64,000 nt of DNA from Pseudomonadota bacterium (GTDB lineage Bacteria; Pseudomonadota; Gammaproteobacteria; Burkholderiales; DATLHW01). The notes under the pieces were generated by a model. That model did not search any database, was not told the origin of the DNA, and worked only from the letters and a program-made list of their open reading frames with translations. Where the stretch lies: assembly GCA_040388195.1 (NCBI GenBank), contig JAZKCF010000106.1, positions 444 to 64,443 of the forward strand. Reading direction: 5' to 3'. Position numbers and translations under genes: made by a program. This document shows, piece after piece, positions 6,726 through 61,460 of the stretch (the stretch's first letter is position 1; each line of letters opens with the position of its first letter).

Positions 6726-7937
6726 TTATGAAACACTCGGATTAATTTCCCCCGCTCGCTTCAATCCCCACTGCGCAACAACGGGTCCGCCCAGTTCTAG
6801 CACAACCAGCGCAAGCATAAGCGCCGCCGCTATGTTGTCCCCCATCTCTGGATAATTTTTTGTGACGCCGAGAATCGAAATCAGCACTACGCCGGAAAGC
6901 GGCTGCATAACGAGATTCAAATTCCACGATCCTGAAAACCCTAACGTACCTGTCCGTGAAAATAGAGAAAGTCCAATCAGTTTTCCAGCAAAACGGGCAA
7001 TTAGCAGTACCACTCCCATCCAAGCCACGCTAAGACCATCATCAAAGTGCAAGCGCGCACCGGATACCACAAAAAGAATCACCATAAACAACTCACCGCC
7101 GCGACCAAATTCCACAGGTATTAGCGACCGCTGCTTATCCAAATTTCGGGTCAGAATGCCGAAAGTCAAGAGGGTCAGCAGCACAGAAAAATTCAATGCA
7201 TTCGCGGCGCCCACAGCAATGACTACGAGGCTAACAACCAAGATGAAGTGATGCCCTTCTCGTTTACCAAGCAGCGCTGCCAGTTTGATGCCGACTACGC
7301 TAAGCACTAAACCTATCAGCGCCGAGCCTAGCAATAAATAAATCGGATGTAGTACGACGACCATTGTGTCAGCGCGATGCTGAAAATGAATCACCGGCAG
7401 AAGCATGGCGATGACAAAAAAAGCGATCACATTATTTAATGCCGTGAACGACAACGCACGTTCGGTCACCTGCCCTTCAGCGGAGAGTTCCTTGGTCAGT
7501 TGCGTCACTACCGTAGGAGAAGTAGAAATTGCCATTGCGGCAAGTAATGCGGCAAATAAATGCCAAACTCCCAACGCATAGAGCGCGAAATAAACAAAAC
7601 CAAATGCCAACGCACTTTCGGTAACGCCAGTGGCTAGCAGCCAACGATCGCGCGTTAGCCATTTGAAATCGAGTCGATTACCAAGTTCATAAAGAATCAG
7701 CCCCAGGCCAATATCGACAAAAACTTTAGCATCGGCGAGCATGGCTTCGGAAAGCCAATTAAGTCCTGCGGGACCCAATAACATGCCGATGGCGACAAAG
7801 CCTGTCATGCGAGGAATACGCAATATTGCATTAAAAAAATGCCCACTCAGCAGTCCGGCGAGCAGCAGGATGCCAAATAAAAGCAAATTGTTAAGTGCAA
7901 GGTTTTCTATGGGGAGAAGTGTTGTTCCGGCGAGCAT
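6726..7937 (-). CDS. Cation:proton antiporter (CPA2/Kef-like membrane domain, no KTN domain)
   Basis: ~12 TM helices; GLGLILYELG, AISTSPTVV, ALNN, LFVVSGA. Confidence 0.8.
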   Translation of the reverse strand: MLAGTTLLPIENLALNNLLLFGILLLAGLLSGHFFNAILRIPRMTGFVAIGMLLGPAGLNWLSEAMLADAKVFVDIGLGLILYELGNRLDFKWLTRDRWLLATGVTESALAFGFVYFALYALGVWHLFAALLAAMAISTSPTVVTQLTKELSAEGQVTERALSFTALNNVIAFFVIAMLLPVIHFQHRADTMVVVLHPIYLLLGSALIGLVLSVVGIKLAALLGKREGHHFILVVSLVVIAVGAANALNFSVLLTLLTFGILTRNLDKQRSLIPVEFGRGGELFMVILFVVSGARLHFDDGLSVAWMGVVLLIARFAGKLIGLSLFSRTGTLGFSGSWNLNLVMQPLSGVVLISILGVTKNYPEMGDNIAAALMLALVVLELGGPVVAQWGLKRAGEINPSVS

Positions 7938-8065
7938 GCATTCCTTTCAGTCGATCTTCCAAACAAAGGAAGCTCCAAATAAGTGTAGTGAGCGAGCCGA
8001 CTTTAAGCCGAGCAGTAACTGTGTACGAATAGGTGTAGCTGGGATTTCGGGGAGCATGCTCCTCG

Positions 8066-8109
8066 CTTGCGGAACGATTTGCACATGCAAGCGCAAACCG
8101 TTCCACAAG
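8066..8109 (-). promoter_or_regulatory. 19-bp stem-loop in putative antiporter leader
   Basis: Fully paired on the minus strand with three G-U pairs; the plus strand would carry three A-C mismatches. Confidence 0.5.
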
Positions 8110-8360
8110 GGCATTGAGTACCGGGTGTTTAAAGCCGGCTCGCGCAGTAGCTTATTTAAAAACTTCCAAAATTTAGATTTGTTTGGAAGACAATATTCGG
8201 GCGCAAGTATGGCAGGCTACGAAAGATTTGGCGAGGTGAGAGGAGAACAGAAAAAATGAAGCGGCGAACCACTCGTTAGAGCAGCTGCCGCTATCGGAAC
8301 TCAACCGCCGCAAGGACAAAGCCGACGGTAGCTGCTGCCATTAAAGCAGCGAGCTGAATA

Positions 8361-8582
8361 TTAGTTTAGGTAAAGCCGCGTACGCCGTGACATTGGTGTG
8401 TCAGACATTACGCCTAAAACGCGGCGGGCAGTACCTGGCGGCAACACAACAGGCTTAGAACACATTACTTGTGCTAGCGCGGTATCGTCAAAATGCCGTT
8501 TGCTACTTGGCCGGTCTTCAACAGTCGATTTGTCGTCCAGAGCTTGTTCTTCTTCCACAGCGAAAAGTTCTTTGTCGTCCAT
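8361..8582 (-). CDS. Small acidic hypothetical protein (73 aa)
   Basis: ATG at 8582 preceded by GAGGGG RBS; the longer track ORF runs through a terminator. Confidence 0.55.
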   Translation of the reverse strand: MDDKELFAVEEEQALDDKSTVEDRPSSKRHFDDTALAQVMCSKPVVLPPGTARRVLGVMSDTPMSRRTRLYLN

Positions 8583-8637
8583 GATTAGGTTCCCCTCTGA
8601 AACATCTCTGCCCTTATGATTAGGGCCAACGACCGCC

Positions 8638-8665
8638 AAAAAATTGGGGCACTTTCGTGCCCCAA
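8638..8665 (-). terminator. Rho-independent terminator
   Basis: 9-bp stem, GAAA tetraloop, six T. Confidence 0.8.
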
Positions 8666-8726
8666 CCAATCGGAGGAGACAGAAGATTTCAGATAAGGCA
8701 CTTAAGCACTACATCTGACACCTTCA
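8638..8726 (-). ncRNA. Candidate sigma54-dependent sRNA with anti-SD (UCUCCUCC) seed
   Basis: -24/-12 promoter directly upstream; 5' hairpin; single-stranded TCTTCTGTCTCCTCC; terminator TTGGGGCAC-GAAA-GTGCCCCAA-T6. Confidence 0.65.
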
Positions 8727-8736
8727 GTTCTATAGA

Positions 8737-8752
8737 AGCAATTCTAATGCCA
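8737..8752 (-). promoter_or_regulatory. Sigma54 -24/-12 promoter
   Basis: TGGCATTAGAATTGCT with exact GG-N10-GC spacing; AT-rich tract upstream. Confidence 0.75.
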
Positions 8753-8926
8753 GTTTTTCTTTTTCAATATAAACAATGGATTATGTGAAACAGTTAATGT
8801 TGTACTTACAATTTTCGTCATATTTAACGCGACAAAGTGACGCAAATTTGAAACATACTTCATAGCAGTCTAAAAAAGTGACAAAAGACGCCACTTGGCG
8901 CCGCGGTTAATGCATTCGATCGACGC

Positions 8927-10303
8927 TTATAGACATGCAGCCATACGCGCCCTAACTTCATCACGACCAAGCAATTCCAGCACCGCATCGATGGAAGGTG
9001 TCTGGGTGCTCCCAGCTACCATCACTCTTAATGGCATCGCCACTTTCGGCATTTTCAAGTTATGTGTGGCAATGATTTCCTTGATGGACGCGCTGATAGC
9101 GTCGCGAGTCCAATCAATCTGCGCAAAGCTATCGTGCAAGGCGCTCAAGGCCGGCATTACCTCGGGCGTGAGATGCTGCGCTTTGAGTTCTTCCGGAGGA
9201 GCAACGCGCTGGTAGAAATAAACAGCTGCTTTAGCTAGCTCCACCAGTGTATGCCCCCGATCCTTCAATAAACTGATGACGTCAGCGAGTTTAGGTATTT
9301 CTGAAATGGACAAGCCTAAATTATGTAGAAATGGCATGGTCAATGCAGCCAGCCGTTCGTTGTCCGCAGTCTTAATATATTGCTGATTCAGCCAACGTAG
9401 CTTTTCGGTATTGAACTGTGCGGCCGAAGGCGTGATGTGATCGAGATCGAACCATTCGCAAAACTGTTGCATTGAGAAAATCTCTTCATCTCCGTGCGAC
9501 CAACCCAGACGGCCCAAATAATTCACTACAGCCTCTTGCAGGTAACCCTCTTCCGGGTATTGCATGACACTGACCGCTCCATGGCGCTTCGAAAGCTTCT
9601 GCCCATCATCGCCAAGAATCATCGAGAGATGCGCGTACTGCGGCATCGGCGCGCCAAGTGCCGCCAGGATATTGATTTGCCTCGGCGTATTGTTAACGTG
9701 ATCATCCCCCCGAATTACATGGGTGATGTTCATGTCCCAATCATCCACTACGACGCAAAAATTGTAGGTTGGCACGCCATCGGCACGGGCAATAATAAGA
9801 TCGTCCATTTCCTTATTTGCGATCGAAATGCGTCCCTTGACTAGATCGTCCCAGACGACTTCACCATCGAGAGGATTCTTGAATCGAACCACTGGCTTGA
9901 CACCAGCAGGCGGCGTCTCTTTCGAATCCCGCCAACGACCGTCATAGCGCGGCTTATCACCGCGTTGGCGTTGCGCCTCACGCAACGCATCCAGCTCTTC
10001 CGGCGTGCAATAGCAGTGGTAGGCTTTTCCTTCCGCGAGCAATTGCTGAATCACTTCCTTGTATCGATCCATGCGCCGTGTTTGGTAATACGGGCCTTCG
10101 TCGTAATCCAGATTCAGCCAATGCATGCCGTCCATAATCGCCTGCACCGCTTCCGGTGTCGAACGTTCCAGATCGGTATCTTCAATGCGCAAGATGAATT
10201 TGCCATGATGCTTGCGAGCGTAAGCCCAGGAAAACAGCGCAGTGCGAGCGCCGCCAATATGCAAAAACCCCGTCGGAGAGGGAGCAAAACGAGTGCGGAC
10301 CAT
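8927..10303 (-). CDS. gltX: Glutamate--tRNA ligase
   Basis: [21 protein letters not shown] Zn motif. Confidence 0.97.
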
Positions 10304-13774: not shown

Positions 13775-13790
13775 TGGCATGGAAATTGCA
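13775..13790 (+). promoter_or_regulatory. Sigma54 -24/-12 promoter
   Basis: TGGCATGGAAATTGCA, ~40 nt upstream of the AAAGGA-preceded ATG 13829. Confidence 0.75.
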
Positions 13791-17391: not shown

Positions 17392-17868
17392 CGCTTCCTC
17401 GCCAAGATATTTATCGTGAGCTCTTCATATCCGACATTCATGGCTAACTTCAGCGTATACATTTAGTGACCTCTACTTTTTTGTGATTCTTGGGTTTTTC
17501 CATATTGTTTCCAGCGTCATGAATTTCATATGGCGCGCTTGCGGATCAATTGACAAACTTCTCACAAGTACGCCCAGCAAAAAATGCAGGGTGCTTTGCA
17601 ATGGTCGCTTAAATTGAAAAGCTCGCTCCAGACTTTGCCGCCCAGAAGCTTAATGAATATCGACAGCAGCGCCACACAACACAAGCGATGATTTCCGCTA
17701 GATAGCGAAAATCGCGATAAAGTTTGGCTGTTTTATCCGGAAACTTTACGTTCGCACACTATTGCTCAGTAAGCTAACGGCGTCCTTCGTAGTCACAATC
17801 ATAAGTTGTAGAAAGCACGATTTAATCTAATAGCTTCCCACTTTGTCCATACTACATTGTCAGATTTA

Positions 17869-39109: not shown

Positions 39110-39262
39110 CCAGGAAAACGTTATCGAGCTTAGCGGACGTGCGCGTAGGCATATAGAAAAGCCACCCGGCCAGCAAAATCTGAAAACCTCACAACACCTT
39201 CACTAACAATTACTTTCATGAAATATAAGCCGCCAATTGCTGTTTTTTAGGAGGAGACACCG

Positions 39263-40888
39263 ATGCTTGGGCAAATGATGCAAATGCCATTACTGATTTC
39301 TTCACTGATCGTTCATGCGGACAAATATCACGGCGATATCGAAGTGGTATCAGGCTTATCAGACGGCAGCATCCACCGGTACACCTACACAGATGCCCAT
39401 AAGCGGGCCCGGCAATTGGCAAACGCATTCGATAAGCTTAGCGTCAAAATTGGCGATCGAATTGGCACGCTAGCCTGGAATGGTTACCGGCACTTGGAAC
39501 TTTACTTTGGAATATCCGGCATAGGCGTGGTTACACATACCATCAACCCTCGCCTCTTCCCAGAGCAAATCAATTACATCATCAACCACGCTGAAGACGA
39601 TTACGTTTTCTTCGACCTAAGCTTCGCTTCTTTAATAGAAAATCTCGCGCCTCACTGCAAGCAGGTAAAAGGGTGGATTGCGCTTACCGACCGCATCCAC
39701 ATGCCGGAGATGAAAACCGCGAATGTGTTGTGTTACGAAGATTTGCTCAATGCCGAATCAGACGATTTCGAATGGCCGTCGTTTGATGAAAATACCGCAT
39801 CATCTCTGTGTTACACCTCGGGGACGACCGGCAACCCTAAAGGTGTTTTATACAGCCATCGCTCAACGGTGTTGCATGCTTATGCAATCGCGCTTCCCGA
39901 TTGCTTGAGCCTGTCGGCACGCGATACTGTATTGCCAGTGGTACCGATGTTTCACGTCAATGGCTGGGGCCTGCCGTATGGCTGCGCTGCGGTGGGAGCC
40001 AAAATAGTATTACCTGGACCTTGCTTAGATGGAGCAAGTCTATTCGAACTGTTCGAAAAGGAAAAAGTCACGATGACAGCCGGCGTGCCCACCATTTGGC
40101 TCGGACTGCTCACGTACCTACAACAAAACAAACTGAAACTCAGTACGCTGAAACGCATGGTGGTCGGCGGCGCCGCCTGTGCGCCAACGCTGATGCGTTC
40201 ACTTGAAGAAGAGCAAGGCGTAGAAGTTCTGCATGCCTGGGGGATGACAGAAACCAGCCCTCTAGGTACCACCTGCATACTGAAGGCAAAGCACGCAACG
40301 CAAAGCAAGGAACAGCAGTACGCGGTAAAAACTAAGCAGGGACGCGCGGTTTATGGCGTTGAGATGAAAATTACAGACAATGATGGGCGCGAATTGCCTT
40401 GCAATGGTGAAGCCGCCGGAAATTTATTGGTAAGAGGTCCGTGGATTGCGCGCGAATATTTCAAGGGGGACGGCAGCCCACTCACGGCAGACGGCTGGTT
40501 TCCGACGGGCGATGTCGCCAGCATTGACGCCGATGGCTACATGCAGATCACCGATCGCTCGAAAGATGTCATCAAATCGGGAGGCGAATGGATTAGTTCG
40601 ATCACATTGGAAAATACCGCCATCGCTCACCCGGCAATCGCCGAGGCAGCAGTCATCGGCATCCATCACCCCAAATGGGACGAACGTCCTTTACTTTTAG
40701 CAGTCAAAAAATCGAACGTTGATGTAAGCAAAGAGGAAATACTGCATTTCTTCGAGGGCAAGGTCGCAAAATGGTGGATACCGGATGATGTCGTATTCGT
40801 CGATCAATTACCTCATACCGCCACCGGCAAGCTGCTGAAGACCAAGCTGCGAGAGGACTTCAGCGCTTATAAATTGCCTACGACTTAA
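39263..40888 (+). CDS. Medium/long-chain acyl-CoA ligase (DmdB/AlkK-like)
   Basis: [26 protein letters not shown]. Confidence 0.88.
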
Positions 40889-47529: not shown

Positions 47530-48624
47530 TTAAGCGCGTCGCTCTATTCCCGCATAAGCGGATCCTGAGTTTCTACGCCGTTCAGGCCCACCATACGAGC
47601 CTCCTGTGGAAAATCGCTGAGAACTCGTCCTAGCGGCCCTTTCTGCATTTGCAGAACTACCGCTTATGCGCTCTACATCGACATCGGTTTCTCGCACGGT
47701 GTCGCGGACAGTTTCTTCCCGCTCGGTGGTTTGCTTACCGATGACGACTTCCTCAGTCACGCGAGCCCGCTTGCCGACCACGGGTTCCTCCGAGGTTTCA
47801 CGCACCTCTATGGTTTGTTCCCTGAAAGCCTGGTCATCAGCCGCACTCAACGGTTGATTAACGGGGCGCCGCTCGATACTTGCGTGCTCTTCACGGAGGC
47901 GAACTGTTTCCTCAACCGGCCTCTCGGTCACGTGGCTGTAGATCCTGACACCACCACGCTGAACTGCGCGCTTGCCTACTTGTAATTCTTCCTTCACTAC
48001 CGGTAAAACTTGCTCGTCTTCGTGCTGCCGGGCACTTGCGGATCGCTGTGATCTCTCGAAATCCGCATCGTTATTCGCGCCAGATTGGACCCATCCGCTG
48101 GCTCTCCAATCTTCAGCCCGTTCATCTATATCCAAGGCCCCATGCATACGCATAATTTCAGCTGCTCTATCGGCCATATCGTCGTCATCAGCGGTGACAG
48201 TAATTAGCGTACCGCCGCGCCGTACGCCTTCAGCGTAGTATTGAGCCTCATTCTCTGGAACACCGACATTCGTAAGAGCGCCGATACCGCCGCCAGCAAC
48301 TGCTCCTACACCGGCGCCTGCCAATGCCGATGCGATCGGACCTGCTGCGATAATCGGGCCGATACCAGGAATAGGTATTGCCGCAATGCCCACAAGAAGA
48401 CCCGCAGCCCCGCCTAAAATGGCGCCGGCTCCAGCCCCCTTCATTGCGCCTGAAGCTACATCTTCTTCAGCTGCTTCACTTCCCGTTTGGCGAGTGGAAT
48501 CAACTTCCTGCTGGCTCGCCATCAAACCGATATCACTACGATCGAAACCGCTATCTACCAAGTCACGCACAACGCTTTGCGCTTCTTCACGCGTATCCAT
48601 AAGTCCAACTACTGTTTTTGCCAT
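47530..48624 (-). CDS. General stress protein (17M-like N-terminus + YsnF/AvaK DUF2382)
   Basis: IPGIGPIIAAGP Gly-rich hairpin, YAEGVRRGG, EELQVGKR...VRLREEH, VRDTVR. Confidence 0.85.
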   Translation of the reverse strand: MAKTVVGLMDTREEAQSVVRDLVDSGFDRSDIGLMASQQEVDSTRQTGSEAAEEDVASGAMKGAGAGAILGGAAGLLVGIAAIPIPGIGPIIAAGPIASALAGAGVGAVAGGGIGALTNVGVPENEAQYYAEGVRRGGTLITVTADDDDMADRAAEIMRMHGALDIDERAEDWRASGWVQSGANNDADFERSQRSASARQHEDEQVLPVVKEELQVGKRAVQRGGVRIYSHVTERPVEETVRLREEHASIERRPVNQPLSAADDQAFREQTIEVRETSEEPVVGKRARVTEEVVIGKQTTEREETVRDTVRETDVDVERISGSSANAERAARTSSQRFSTGGSYGGPERRRNSGSAYAGIERRA

Positions 48625-48706: not shown

Positions 48707-49126
48707 TCAACTACCGTTTTTAAAATCCTTTTCTCGCTCCACAAACACCTCCTCATTACGTAAAGTGACACGCTGTGAGCTCTGTGTTTCCACCGTGCTC
48801 TTGCTAATGCGCAATTCCTCTTTTAGGACCAATTGTTTTTGCACCACAAGAACTTCCTCCAGTACTGGGATAACTAAAACGTCCCCCTCGTAATGAGCAG
48901 TAACGGGCTGTTCAATCACTCGATTGATAGTTACGCGCTCAACTTTTACTGCTGTATGCAAAAGTGGTTGCTCGATTAATTCCTCATGTTCACGAACCAC
49001 TTTCTTGACCCGAACAATGCCCGTCTCAACAACGTTTTTACTGACTTCCAGTTCCTCGCGGGCCACCGGAATAGTTACAGATGGATTGTCGGTTTTCGAA
49101 CTAGCTTTGTGATGTTGCATTTGCAT
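48707..49126 (-). CDS. YsnF/AvaK (DUF2382) protein
   Basis: IPVAREELEVSK, IPVLEEVLVVQKQLVLKEE, LRNEEV. Confidence 0.85.
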   Translation of the reverse strand: MQMQHHKASSKTDNPSVTIPVAREELEVSKNVVETGIVRVKKVVREHEELIEQPLLHTAVKVERVTINRVIEQPVTAHYEGDVLVIPVLEEVLVVQKQLVLKEELRISKSTVETQSSQRVTLRNEEVFVEREKDFKNGS

Positions 49127-49184: not shown

Positions 49185-49200
49185 AGCAAATTGGATGCCA
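49185..49200 (-). promoter_or_regulatory. Sigma54 -24/-12 promoter
   Basis: TGGCATCCAATTTGCT, ~60 nt upstream of the YsnF operon. Confidence 0.7.
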
Positions 49201-58385: not shown

Positions 58386-59021
58386 TTATCCGCGCGCTAC
58401 CAATGCACCGTTTTCGATACGTACGCGGTCACCGATTCCAACACCTGGATCACCTGTCTGAGTGATAGTGCGATACGCACCATCTTCCATCCGTACTCGA
58501 ACAACGTATTGCTTATTCTTCTTCACATTCTTTTCAATTTCATTACCTGCAAAGCCGCCGCCTACGGCGCCAGCCACAGTTGCCAAATCGTTACCACGGC
58601 CATTACCCATTTGATGACCTAATATGCCACCAACAACAGCACCGCCGACAACACCTAGACCAGAACCTTGCCCTTTCACTTCACGCACCTGCACTGACTC
58701 AACCACACCGCAACTCGCACACGTCATTGCAATGTGCTGCGGTGCCTGATTCGTCCGTGGCGCTGTGGAATGCTCTCGCGAAACAACATGCGAAGTTTTT
58801 GGCTTCTGTACTACCGCTTGCTTCACCGGCTCTACTTCTTTTATATCTTTGTCAGCTTGAAGCGTTTGCGCGGTTTGTGCATCGACCGTCACTTCACTTT
58901 TTTGCGATGACGCATTAGGCATATGACCAGTCATTGTGGCAATGCCAACAACACTGAACAGAATTACCGAGATGGAAGCAATCACCATCACCGGATACAA
59001 CATTCCATTCCTTTTATCCAT
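58386..59021 (-). CDS. Glycine-zipper 2TM envelope protein (SlyB/Pcp-like)
   Basis: N-terminal TM, CASCGVV, GAVVGGILGHQMG.G.G...ATVAGAVGGGFAGN, VRMEDG; RBS AAGGGG before ATG 59021. Confidence 0.85.
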   Translation of the reverse strand: MDKRNGMLYPVMVIASISVILFSVVGIATMTGHMPNASSQKSEVTVDAQTAQTLQADKDIKEVEPVKQAVVQKPKTSHVVSREHSTAPRTNQAPQHIAMTCASCGVVESVQVREVKGQGSGLGVVGGAVVGGILGHQMGNGRGNDLATVAGAVGGGFAGNEIEKNVKKNKQYVVRVRMEDGAYRTITQTGDPGVGIGDRVRIENGALVARG

Positions 59022-59112: not shown

Positions 59113-59128
59113 AGCAATGGTCGTGCCA
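59113..59128 (-). promoter_or_regulatory. Sigma54 -24/-12 promoter
   Basis: TGGCACGACCATTGCT, consensus match. Confidence 0.88.
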
Positions 59129-59201: not shown

Positions 59202-59219
59202 TGTCTCTAATTACCGACA
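59202..59219. promoter_or_regulatory. GlrR-type upstream activator site 1
   Basis: TGTC-TCTAATTACC-GACA (TGTC-N10-GACA). Confidence 0.75.
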
Positions 59220-59268
59220 ATTCGCTGATTACAAGGAATTAACAAGTTGATCACACAAGGGTTTTTTA

Positions 59269-59522: not shown

Positions 59523-60866
59523 CTAGGCTTGGGATTTAAACCGTGCCGGTTCTAATTGATGGCGCTGCAAGAGCTTATAAAATTCAGTGCGGTTACGCTT
59601 AGCAAGCTTGGCCGCTTGAGTAACGTTGCCCTCGGTTATTTTCAGGAGTTGTGAAAGATAGTCTCGCTCGAACCGGCGGCGCGCTTCATCAAACGAATCA
59701 AAATCTCGTTGTTCGCGTTGAATAGCGTTTTGCACCAAGGTTGCAGGAATTACCGGCGTTGTGGTTAACGCAACGGTCTGTTCAACCACGTTATATAGCT
59801 GCCGAACGTTTCCAGGCCACGGAGCAGCCACAAGTAATTCCAATGCTTCCGGCGCAAAGGCGTTTACTGGCTTTGCGTATTTGTCACCGACTCGCTTAAG
59901 GAAATAGGAAGCGAGTAACGGTATATCTTCGCGCCGCTCGGCGAGTGAAGGAAGTTTCAGGGAAACCACATTCAACCGGTAAAACAAATCGCCTCGGAAA
60001 GTTCCATTATCCTTGGCAGTCTCCAGATCCCGGTGAGTAGCAGAAATAATACGAACATCCACCGACACCGATTGCGTCGCGCCAACAGGCCGCACATGAC
60101 GGTCTTCTAACACCCGCAGGAGCTTCACCTGCAATGAGAGAGGCATATCGCCAATCTCATCCAGCAACAAGGTTCCTTTATCCGCCGCTTGAAATAAGCC
60201 TTTGTAATCCTTCACCGCGCCGGTAAACGATCCTTTGATATGGCCGAATAGCTCAGATTCCAGCAACTGCTCTGGAATCGCGCCGCAATTCACTGCTATA
60301 AAAGGGTTATCTCTTCGCTTGCTGGCCTTATGAATCGCGCGCGCCAGCAATTCCTTGCCGCTACCGCTTTCACCCGATAGAAACACACTCGCATCCCCAG
60401 CCGCTACCAATTTCGCTTGATTCAGTACGTCTTCTATTAAACGGCTACGGGTAATAATTTCCGAGCGCCATTCGCCGCTTTCTCCCAAGTCAATCGTAGC
60501 CCCGGATAAGCGCAAAGCCGCGTCCACTTGCTCTAGCAACGTTGCGCTTTCATAAGGCTTAGTGAGATAACCAAATACGCCACGCATCGTTGCGGAAACC
60601 GCCTCCGGGATCGTGCCGTGCGCGGTGAGAATGATCACCGGCAATGCGGGATGATCCTTACGCAAGGTATCGAACAACGCGATGCCATCCATACCAGGCA
60701 TCCGTAAATCGGAAATTACCAATTGCGGCATTTCAGCGGCAATGGCGGCCAGCGCGCGCTCACCATTCTCCGTCGTAATGACTTCGTATCCTGCGGATTT
60801 AAGCCGAATGGCAAGAAGACGCAAAAGATCTGGGTCATCATCTACTAATAAAATTTTTGCTTGCAT
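59523..60866 (-). CDS. glrR: Sigma54-dependent response regulator, GlrR/QseF-like
   Basis: REC, GESGSGKE, GSFTGA, LLDEIGD, WPGNVRQL, AAKLAKRNRTEFYKLLQRH HTH. Confidence 0.88.
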   Translation of the reverse strand: MQAKILLVDDDPDLLRLLAIRLKSAGYEVITTENGERALAAIAAEMPQLVISDLRMPGMDGIALFDTLRKDHPALPVIILTAHGTIPEAVSATMRGVFGYLTKPYESATLLEQVDAALRLSGATIDLGESGEWRSEIITRSRLIEDVLNQAKLVAAGDASVFLSGESGSGKELLARAIHKASKRRDNPFIAVNCGAIPEQLLESELFGHIKGSFTGAVKDYKGLFQAADKGTLLLDEIGDMPLSLQVKLLRVLEDRHVRPVGATQSVSVDVRIISATHRDLETAKDNGTFRGDLFYRLNVVSLKLPSLAERREDIPLLASYFLKRVGDKYAKPVNAFAPEALELLVAAPWPGNVRQLYNVVEQTVALTTTPVIPATLVQNAIQREQRDFDSFDEARRRFERDYLSQLLKITEGNVTQAAKLAKRNRTEFYKLLQRHQLEPARFKSQA

Positions 60867-60902
60867 ACGTTTTGCGATTTCTAACTTCACTTTTAGAGTT
60901 GC

Positions 60903-61460
60903 TTATTTAGGTGCAGATTGTTTGCCCCGGCCACGCTCGGACAAACTTTTTTCAATAGATTTGAGTGCTTCAAGTTTCTGCTGCAACTCTGCAGACTGTC
61001 TTTGCTCTTCTTTTAGTTTAGTATTCGATGCCTGCGCTGCCTCATCTAAGCGCTTGTTGTCCGCCACAAAGCCAATTAGCAACCAGACAAAATTACGCAC
61101 GCTAGGCGAGGAGGCTTCCTTGCTAAGCGGCTCTAGCATCGCTAATGCTTTGCTGTCATCCCGCAAGGGAAGACCCGGTAATGCATAAAACATGGCTAGT
61201 TCCGCACGGGTTAAATCTGTCTTTGATTTAGCTACGGCTTGTCTTAAGGATTCGTGCTCGCGAGTCAGCTCGCTTGCACTTAAACGGCGTAAATAGTTGG
61301 CATACTCCAATAGAATGTCCGAATCGGACGCAACATTTGAGGAATCACGCGCCGTTGATTGATGCTTAGGTAATTGCACGGGAGTTTCAACAACTCTATT
61401 AGCAACACAGCCCGCCATACCTAGCAGTACGGCAATAAACAGAGGAAAAAACGATTTCAT
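60903..61460 (-). CDS. QseG/YfhG-like lipoprotein with C-terminal coiled coil
   Basis: Lipobox MAGC; LQQKLEALKSIEKSL tail; lies between kinase and regulator. Confidence 0.75.
   Translation of the reverse strand: MKSFFPLFIAVLLGMAGCVANRVVETPVQLPKHQSTARDSSNVASDSDILLEYANYLRRLSASELTREHESLRQAVAKSKTDLTRAELAMFYALPGLPLRDDSKALAMLEPLSKEASSPSVRNFVWLLIGFVADNKRLDEAAQASNTKLKEEQRQSAELQQKLEALKSIEKSLSERGRGKQSAPK

Follow-up and report, generated by a model that had tools for sequence, protein, structure and literature searches.

A candidate sigma-54-dependent small RNA with an anti-Shine-Dalgarno-type seed in one uncultured lineage of Burkholderiales

INTRODUCTION

To our knowledge, small RNAs (sRNAs) that depend on sigma-54 are few, and nearly all of those described (Qrr, GlmY, CrcZ and NrsZ) come from Gammaproteobacteria. 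The Qrr sRNAs of Vibrio require sigma-54 and LuxO, depend on Hfq and repress their targets at ribosome-binding sites (RBSs). GlmY of Enterobacteria requires sigma-54, GlrR/QseF and IHF, and acts by protein sequestration. Among the titles that full-text searches listed, we found no sigma-54-dependent sRNA of Burkholderiales, although one may still be in print. Here we analyse a stretch of 64,000 nucleotides from the genome of an uncultured soil/water bacterium of this order (hereafter the window; assembly GCA_040388195.1, contig JAZKCF010000106.1, positions 444 to 64,443), in which an earlier note, made from the letters alone, had proposed an sRNA unit with its own sigma-54 promoter at positions 8638-8752 on the minus strand. 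The window corresponds to contig C106 of a 4.9-Mb assembly (G000) that comprises 164 contigs and is 92.6% complete with 0.32% contamination.

Base-pairing sRNAs with C/U-rich motifs are known outside this order. In AbcR and NfeR1 of Alphaproteobacteria and in RoxS/RsaE of Firmicutes, unpaired C/U- or C-rich motifs occlude the purine-rich RBSs of many mRNAs, and an invariant unpaired C/U-rich stretch beside the terminator is the usual layout of a trans-acting Hfq-dependent sRNA. Some sRNAs are derived from attenuators or leaders, such as rnTrpL and the riboswitch-derived SreA. Within Burkholderiales, a described system of comparable kind is the Betaproteobacteria toxic sRNA family (RF02278), with bdhR1 (ncS27) and the Bordetella sRNA S17S as members. 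This family is reported to occur widely and to share a 27-nt region with 100% conservation across Betaproteobacteria (PMC11722255; PMC5688073). S17S is described as arising by processing of a sigma-A transcript and as repressing translation, including that of a sigma-54 activator (PMC11722255).

RESULTS

Anatomy of the predicted unit

The unit carries the sequence TGGCATTAGAATTGCT (8737-8752, minus strand), which corresponds to a sigma-54 promoter of the form TGGCAT-N5-TTGCT, with the -24 GG and the -12 GC at canonical spacing. The pattern TGGCAY-N5-TTGCW was found at four sites in the window against 0.15 expected, a number reached by none of 100 shuffles, and at 66 sites across G000 against ~9.4 expected from base composition. 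When the C at 8738 is taken as the -12 position, transcription is predicted to start at ~8726, at the foot of the first stem. The distance from TTGCTT to the GAAG at the stem base is 10 nt in all four homologous sequences described below, with varying bases in the spacer, and this constant spacing also puts the predicted start right where the stem begins. With the U6 tract as the predicted end, the sRNA would extend over 8638-8726 on the minus strand and measure ~89 nt. A promoter scan of the minus strand between 8000 and 9400 found no sigma-70-like promoter, and the locus itself is the only copy of the sRNA in G000. Two short open reading frames (ORFs) overlap the unit, one of 38 aa on the minus strand (8585-8701) and one of 43 aa on the plus strand (8657-8788). 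Since neither ORF is conserved, and the 38-aa frame is disrupted in the congener G001 by a 1-nt indel downstream of the U-tract, neither is credible, in agreement with the earlier note.

The RNA, folded as 91 nt, reached -37.3 kcal/mol (z = -5.69), and its homologue in G001 had a z-score of -6.13; in both cases none of 200 shuffled sequences was equally stable. The sequence GAAGGTGTCAGATGTAGTGCTTAAGTGCCTTATCTGAAATCTTC, ten bases 3' of the promoter, forms a 5' hairpin that includes TCAGAT/ATCTGA (8682-8725, minus strand) and is followed by TGTCTCCTCCGATT. Its pairing is kept while its sequence varies: in the alignment of the four homologues 88% of cells are paired, compared with 35-54% when the partners are slid. 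Next to the hairpin lies the 14-nt C/U-rich stretch UGUCUCCUCCGAUU (8668-8681, minus strand), which is of anti-Shine-Dalgarno (anti-SD) type and unpaired in the predicted folds; we refer to it as the seed. The earlier note had placed the unpaired seed at UCUUCUGUCUCCUCC. However, the UCUUC of that sequence pairs with the 5' GAAG(G/A) in the predicted folds of all four homologues, so the free stretch is UGUCUCCUCCGAUU (8681-8668) and not UCUUCUGUCUCCUCC; it is the former that is both unpaired and conserved, and the UCUUC belongs to the 5' stem. The motif CUGUCUCCUCC occupies 8682-8672 on the minus strand.

Directly after the seed, fold and conservation define an intrinsic terminator (8638-8667, minus strand), GGUUGGGGCAC-GAAA-GUGCCCCAAUU followed by a U tract, which in DNA reads GGTTGGGGCAC-GAAA-GTGCCCCAATT and a T tract. 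The GC-rich stem of 9-11 bp carries a GNRA loop, and the core GGGGCAC-GAAA-GTGCCCC is followed by U6, ending at 8638. A simple terminator scan of the window did not have the sRNA terminator among its matches, perhaps because the AAUU of the tail is drawn into the stem. A terminator scan that covered 260 nt downstream of every one of the 66 sigma-54 sites of G000 gave two matches, namely this unit and a doubtful one on contig C157, which leaves the present unit as the only convincing one. Promoter, hairpin and terminator, the elements from which the earlier note had assembled a complete minus-strand unit, are all present.

Selective conservation in one lineage

Of 41 related genomes searched with BLAST, the congener G001 alone contained the unit, at 79% identity. 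When 151 genomes of the order were searched with a covariance model built from the G000 and G001 sequences (R1), seven genomes had a match at E <= 0.1, and the match was real only in G000 and G001 themselves. We read the R1 alignments for the five weak genomes, and also the flanking DNA for two of them, G034 and G037. The match in G034 was a coding gene's 3' end with its terminator, that in G037 was without a proper -12 element, and those in G135, G008 and G009 scored 22-26 bits, mainly from the terminator. A search of genome contigs for the promoter-plus-seed pattern returned nine loci; the only one that fits the model (L053) belongs to a metagenome-assembled genome labelled 'Burkholderiales bacterium' and does not differ from G001 in the part that was aligned. 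Scanning metagenome contigs for the 17-mer gave 41 loci, 38 of which were not homologues. The three true homologues were L064, L082 and L085, the last again without a difference from G001 in the aligned part. We rejected L066, a weak model match of 23.2 bits with no promoter, and L097, which has a 'promoter' with two mismatches and no terminator. A model built from all four distinct sequences (R2) and run over 151 genomes of the class gave a single weak match beyond G000, of 29.1 bits in G510, without a sigma-54 motif upstream. So far, the unit is confined to one uncultured genus-level lineage of Burkholderiales.

The four distinct sequences compared were G000, which served as the reference, its congener G001 (equivalent to L053) and the metagenome contigs L064 and L082; identities to G000 are given below for the last three in this order. 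Two blocks upstream of the promoter, which form a dyad, were identical at 16/16 positions in all three sequences (block 1) and at 11/13, 13/13 and 11/13 positions (block 2), with 8/17, 15/17 and 7/17 in the spacer between them and 26/55, 50/55 and 33/65 between the dyad and the promoter. The promoter, including the next T, was identical at 17/17, 17/17 and 16/17 positions, and the segment from the promoter to the predicted start at 3/10, 6/10 and 3/10. Within the transcribed part, the hairpin retained 27/44, 38/44 and 28/44 positions, the seed 14/14 in every case and the terminator 30/30, 29/30 and 29/30. Between the terminator and the ATG of the adjacent 73-aa gene (ORF73), identity was 24/60, 52/55 and 27/62. 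Counted by whole element, dyad, promoter, seed and terminator keep 93-100% identity across the four versions; divergence in the intervening stretches is about 50%. In that gene, the third codon position differs between G000 and G001 in 38 of the 73 codons, indicating that about half of the neutral sites have changed. Since the blocks are invariant at a distance at which neutral sites are ~50% diverged, they are under strong constraint.

A separate observation concerns the metagenome locus L081 (1440-1560, minus strand), where the same 17-base seed, CTGTCTCCTCCGATTGG, directly precedes another intrinsic terminator. The site falls in the 3' part of a gene whose translation, as judged by eye, ends in ...ASLAYLF. 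It could be a 3'-derived sRNA that is unrelated but has an identical seed, or a chance match such as most of the 41 17-mer loci represent.

Upstream control region and candidate trans-acting factors

The two conserved blocks identified in the alignment are TTTCAAATTTGCGTCA (8838-8853, minus strand), the left half of the dyad and a candidate activator site, and TGACGAAAATTGT (8808-8820, minus strand), the right half. Together they give the dyad TTTGCGTCA-N17-TGACGAAAA, with its centre at about -103 from the predicted start. A motif match to IHF sites (WATCAANNNNTTR on the opposite strand, with one mismatch; 8770-8782, minus strand) is centred at about -50. This IHF-like site is present in three of the four sequences, being exact in G001 and having one mismatch in G000 and L064; L082 has none within one mismatch. 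The order of dyad, IHF-like site and -24/-12 promoter is the classic layout of such control regions. No copy of the dyad was found near other sigma-54 promoters of G000. An observation in its own right is a perfect palindrome, CGTCATGTAAAGCTACTTTACATGACG, on contig C52 of G000 (17598-17632, plus strand), which resembles the half-sites of the dyad and lies ~100 nt upstream of a weak sigma-54-like motif; an AtoC-like activator and several sigma-54 promoters are found on the same contig.

G000 encodes rpoN (PF04552, 222.9 bits) as a 492-aa open frame and eight full-length enhancer-binding proteins (PF00158), namely NtrC, a PEP-CTERM-box regulator, a receiver-less protein, three AtoC-like paralogues, a GlrR-like protein encoded in the window, and one more. 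The box TGTC-N10-GACA, which is characteristic of GlrR-type regulation, is absent from the dyad, and GlrR is therefore an unlikely activator. The histidine kinase gene upstream of the unit in L082 was considered as a clue to the activator and rejected, as its homologue in G000 lies on C139, a contig without any of the eight activator genes. Five Hfq-domain genes scored over the Pfam cut-off (PF17209) in G000: C13:32817-33002 (minus strand), C16:11774-11959 (plus), C8:108333-108524 (minus), C95:27175-27357 (plus) and C120:18598-18789 (plus). Five copies in one genome are unusual. The copy on C120 has a consensus sigma-54 promoter ~230 nt upstream.

The remaining consensus sigma-54 promoters of the window lie beside other genes. 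A GlrK/GlrR-like module comprises genes at 58386-59021, 59523-60890, 60903-61460 and 61534-63003, all on the minus strand, among them a histidine kinase (HAMP, HisKA and HATPase_c domains), a 185-aa ORF and the GlrR-like activator, which scored 630.9 bits against NF011695 (cut-off 763). Downstream in this module, the promoter TGGCACGACCATTGCT (59113-59128, minus strand) is preceded, beside the GlrR-like gene, by a perfect TGTC-N10-GACA box at ~59203-59220 and would drive a protein with a glycine-zipper 2TM domain (Rick_17kDa_Anti). A GlmY-like RNA was not found. The promoter at 49185-49200 (minus strand) precedes two DUF2382 genes, 48707-49126 and 47530-48624, one of which also has a YflT domain, and that at 13775-13790 (plus strand) precedes a 128-aa ORF without a family.

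Neighbouring genes

Upstream of the unit lies gltX (8927-10303; TIGR00464, 596 bits). The terminator scan placed a terminator-like hairpin after it, GGCGCCAAGTGGCGTC with a T-run (8887-8902, minus strand), which would insulate the unit from gltX transcription. The farther upstream gene is gltX in three of the loci and a hybrid histidine kinase in L082. Directly downstream, in all four loci, lies the orphan gene ORF73 (8361-8582, minus strand; 73-76 aa), on the same strand as the unit and 55-70 nt away from it (55 nt in G000). The differences between G000 and L064 fall at its first, second and third codon positions in the numbers 3/0/20, a pattern indicating that ORF73 is truly coding and under purifying selection, and the protein has an invariant basic C-terminus, RRV-GVMSDTPMSRRTRLY. 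The family has no match in Pfam or NCBIfam, and the Atlas search returned nothing useful. Its homologues form two clusters among 5.8 billion proteins. Of 401 genomes of the order, five had an ORF73 match at E <= 0.01, and the match was convincing only in the two genomes of the genus; the others (G129, G222 and G369) scored 19-20 bits each. Because the strand shows no sigma-70-like site between 8000 and 9400, the simplest account of ORF73 transcription is read-through of the terminator. Some read-through into ORF73 is likely, which would make the locus an operon of an sRNA and a small protein.

After ORF73, again in all four loci, comes a gene of the Na+/H+ exchanger family (6726-7937, minus strand; PF00999, 84.9 bits). 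It is regarded here only as a syntenic neighbour. Orthologues of the antiporter with ~45% identity were found in 141 of the 401 genomes of the order (a tally that includes G378 and G204, which are flagged as unpublished), and none of 27 upstream regions inspected elsewhere had a sigma-54 promoter. As the antiporter is widespread without the promoter and the RNA and ORF73 are restricted, the latter two look like a lineage-specific insertion.

DISCUSSION

A probable base-pairing sRNA

The combination of an own promoter, a structured 5' end, an invariant C/U-rich seed and a terminator, in a genome that encodes Hfq, argues for a base-pairing sRNA. Judging from these features, we consider it probable that the unit encodes an activator- and RpoN-dependent sRNA which occludes purine-rich RBSs. 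Transcription, dependence on RpoN, the start and end of the RNA, its action in trans and repression at RBSs are what we infer from the observed anatomy, its selective conservation and the presence of rpoN, activator and Hfq genes. An enhancer-binding protein at the conserved dyad (about -103) would activate sigma-54 polymerase at TGGCAT-N5-TTGCT, probably assisted by IHF-induced bending at about -50. The transcript would start near 8726 and stop at the GAAA-capped terminator after ~89 nt. Its seed, UGUCUCCUCCGAUU, would most likely pair, aided by Hfq, with the purine-rich RBSs (..AAUCGGAGGAGACA..) of one or more mRNAs, and this pairing would block the initiation of translation. The sigma-54-driven sRNA of ~90 nt put forward in the earlier note is thus backed by comparison as a putative free-standing sigma-54-type unit of ~89 nt.

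The earlier note had also suggested a local target, the AMP-binding ligase gene with its ATG at 39263. The complementarity is indeed present at its RBS: the site AGGAGGAGACA (39249-39259, plus strand) ends 3 nt before the ATG, and GGAGGAGACA at 39250-39259 gives a 10-nt pairing with the seed. In a genome-wide duplex ranking with two start-site definitions, this site came ~11th of 35,131 candidate starts. However, G000 contains 56 ten-base exact complements of the seed, a number that counts against the ligase as a target. The site remains a weak candidate, and the proposal of a local target was not borne out, since pairing was not distinguished from that of shuffled seeds and no ortholog was found in G001.

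Several results weigh against the sRNA interpretation. At candidate starts, the real seed formed 159 duplexes at <= -18 kcal/mol, within the range of 104-441 given by five shuffled seeds. In G001, which has an identical seed and is 86% complete, the best match to the ligase had 30% identity and no ortholog was found. The seed-complement pattern had 107 matches in that genome versus 64 for the reversed control, mostly inside genes, and a reciprocal comparison of these sites with the candidates of G000 gave no conserved target. No pairing with the seed stood out in the leaders of the eight activators, in the leader and RBS of the antiporter gene or at the RBS of ORF73. As regards structure, covariation is thin: of 28 pairs, one has both partners changed and six have a single partner changed, and 86-127 of 500 shuffles reach these scores. 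No second site for the dyad with <= 2 mismatches exists in G000, and this genome is itself a metagenome-assembled genome of an uncultured organism. Finally, the constant linkage to ORF73 at 55-70 nt also fits a role as a leader.

A related observation from the target search in G001 is an identical sequence at two contig ends, C209:6157-6171 and C290:10760-10774 (L173 and L174), where GGAGGAGACAG lies 5 nt upstream of an ATG. No longer complement of the seed in RBS position was seen in that genome, and the sequence is probably a repeated element.

Alternative explanations

The strongest alternative is that the RNA serves mainly as a 5' leader or attenuator acting in cis on ORF73, with the ORF73 mRNA as the real product and the short RNA as a by-product, which we regard as possible but not likely. 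The terminator would then be a regulated checkpoint at which the seed and hairpin bind a factor, either a protein, possibly that of ORF73, or a ligand, that decides on read-through. The unit keeps its place and orientation relative to ORF73 in all four loci while the farther upstream gene differs, the scan of 8000-9400 showed no sigma-70-like promoter for this gene, and ORF73, which is truly coding and subject to purifying selection, is restricted to the lineage just like the RNA. Moreover, the terminator is kept in sequence and not just in structure, which exceeds the needs of termination, and the minimum free energy (MFE) folds of the three divergent types contain a second small hairpin, of differing sequence, between the terminator and the ATG. 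On the other hand, the four read-through MFE folds showed no conserved antiterminator pairing and kept the terminator, which is weak evidence as it comes from MFE folds only, and the partner of the seed in these folds changes from sequence to sequence. The terminator is also a strong one, with its GC-rich stem of 9-11 bp, GNRA loop and U6, and the invariant 14-nt unpaired C/U stretch beside it fits the layout of a trans-acting Hfq-dependent sRNA. The roles of sRNA and leader are not exclusive. We also put forward, tentatively and as a rather unlikely whole, an operon with two outputs, in which a sigma-54 promoter with its own single-target activator site and a leaky strong terminator would yield both an anti-SD sRNA and the ORF73 mRNA. 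The ORF73 protein would work with the RNA, as a dedicated binding partner or as a feedback factor on the seed and terminator, and the de novo origin of the module would fall within a single Burkholderiales genus, which also has five Hfq paralogues.

We consider it improbable that the RNA sequesters a protein or acts as a decoy, be it for Hfq or for the ribosome or S1, or as a sponge for another RNA. Such a role would agree with the failure of any target to stand out, with the conservation in sequence of the entire 44-nt 3' half, and with the unusual five Hfq paralogues of G000. However, the locus encodes one short RNA in single copy, and this RNA has no repeated protein-binding motifs, neither GGA loops of the Csr/Rsm type nor A-rich repeats of the CrcZ type.

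Kinship with RF02278, which the earlier note had invoked as the precedent for such seeds in this order, is very improbable even for a diverged member of the family. The unit comes from the same order and has a C/U-rich anti-SD-type motif in common with it, and the family is reported as widespread with a conserved 27-nt core (PMC11722255; PMC5688073). However, the RF02278 covariance model gave no match here, either at the gathering score or with the limit relaxed to E <= 10, and none in the three homologous loci at the gathering score, and S17S is reported to derive from a processed sigma-A transcript and not from a sigma-54 promoter (PMC11722255). The best RF02278 match in G000 lies elsewhere, at the 3' end of a gene on C159 (4400-4476, minus strand; L098), with 31.6 bits against a cut-off of 50. 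This stretch was noted for its own sake, as it bears CUCCUCCUCC and a terminator directly after the stop codon of the gene; it is a candidate 3'-derived S17S/bdhR1-like sRNA, resembling the processed S17S described in Bordetella (PMC11722255; PMC5688073). The wider Rfam search gave no relative either: at the gathering score a tRNA was the only match in the window and the three homologous loci had none, and at E <= 10 the best match at the locus was an unrelated leader with 13.6 bits against a cut-off of 37.5, so that no family matched the locus, including Qrr, GlmY/GlmZ, CrcZ and NrsZ. Going by these covariance models, the unit would represent a new family without an Rfam match rather than a member of RF02278.

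A chance juxtaposition of motifs without function has a negligible probability, given blocks that are invariant where neutral sites are ~50% diverged, the enrichment of the promoter pattern and the z-scores of the folds.

Significance and comparison with known systems

If the interpretation as an sRNA is true, the unit would provide Burkholderiales with a clean example of a sigma-54-dependent sRNA and a complete, readable control region consisting of dyad, IHF-like site and -24/-12 promoter. It would also illustrate how an sRNA of an uncultured lineage can be recognised from the selective conservation of its DNA. The practical value is limited by the uncultured organism and by a family found in one genus-level lineage. 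Its constant association with the gene of an orphan small protein is a hint of an operon of an sRNA and a small protein, which would be more interesting than an sRNA alone.

RF02278, bdhR1 (ncS27) and the Bordetella S17S share with the unit C/U-rich anti-SD-like motifs, a terminator and their occurrence in Burkholderiales. Their C/U motifs are reported to lie in hairpin loops (PMC5688073) or at a processed 5' end (PMC11722255), whereas that of the unit lies in the segment that joins hairpin and terminator. The type of promoter is also different, and the distribution of RF02278 is broad whereas that of the unit is narrow. Since the RF02278 model does not match, the unit would work like the anti-SD sRNAs but is no member of that family. 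Leader-derived RNAs of the rnTrpL/SreA type resemble it in being short terminated RNAs directly upstream of a co-oriented gene with which they share a promoter. They differ from it in that the unit has no conserved antiterminator that we could find, and no known ligand or peptide leader.

Among the sigma-54-dependent sRNAs, Qrr resembles the unit in overall plan, with a length of ~100 nt, a sigma-54 promoter, an activator site upstream (a candidate one in the unit), an intrinsic terminator, a conserved single-stranded pairing region and repression at RBSs, which is predicted for the unit. Unlike Qrr, the unit is present in single copy, without an adjacent activator gene, carries a generic anti-SD seed and comes from one uncultured genus. 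GlmY likewise combines dependence on sigma-54 with an activator site upstream and an architecture of the IHF type, for both of which the unit has candidate sites; however, it does not act through an anti-SD seed, and the dyad of the unit has no GlrR-type box. With AbcR, NfeR1 and RoxS/RsaE the unit shares no homology, and these RNAs belong to different phyla and have no sigma-54 promoters, but the predicted mode of action is the same. The predicted control of the unit, in turn, resembles that of Qrr, GlmY, CrcZ and NrsZ.

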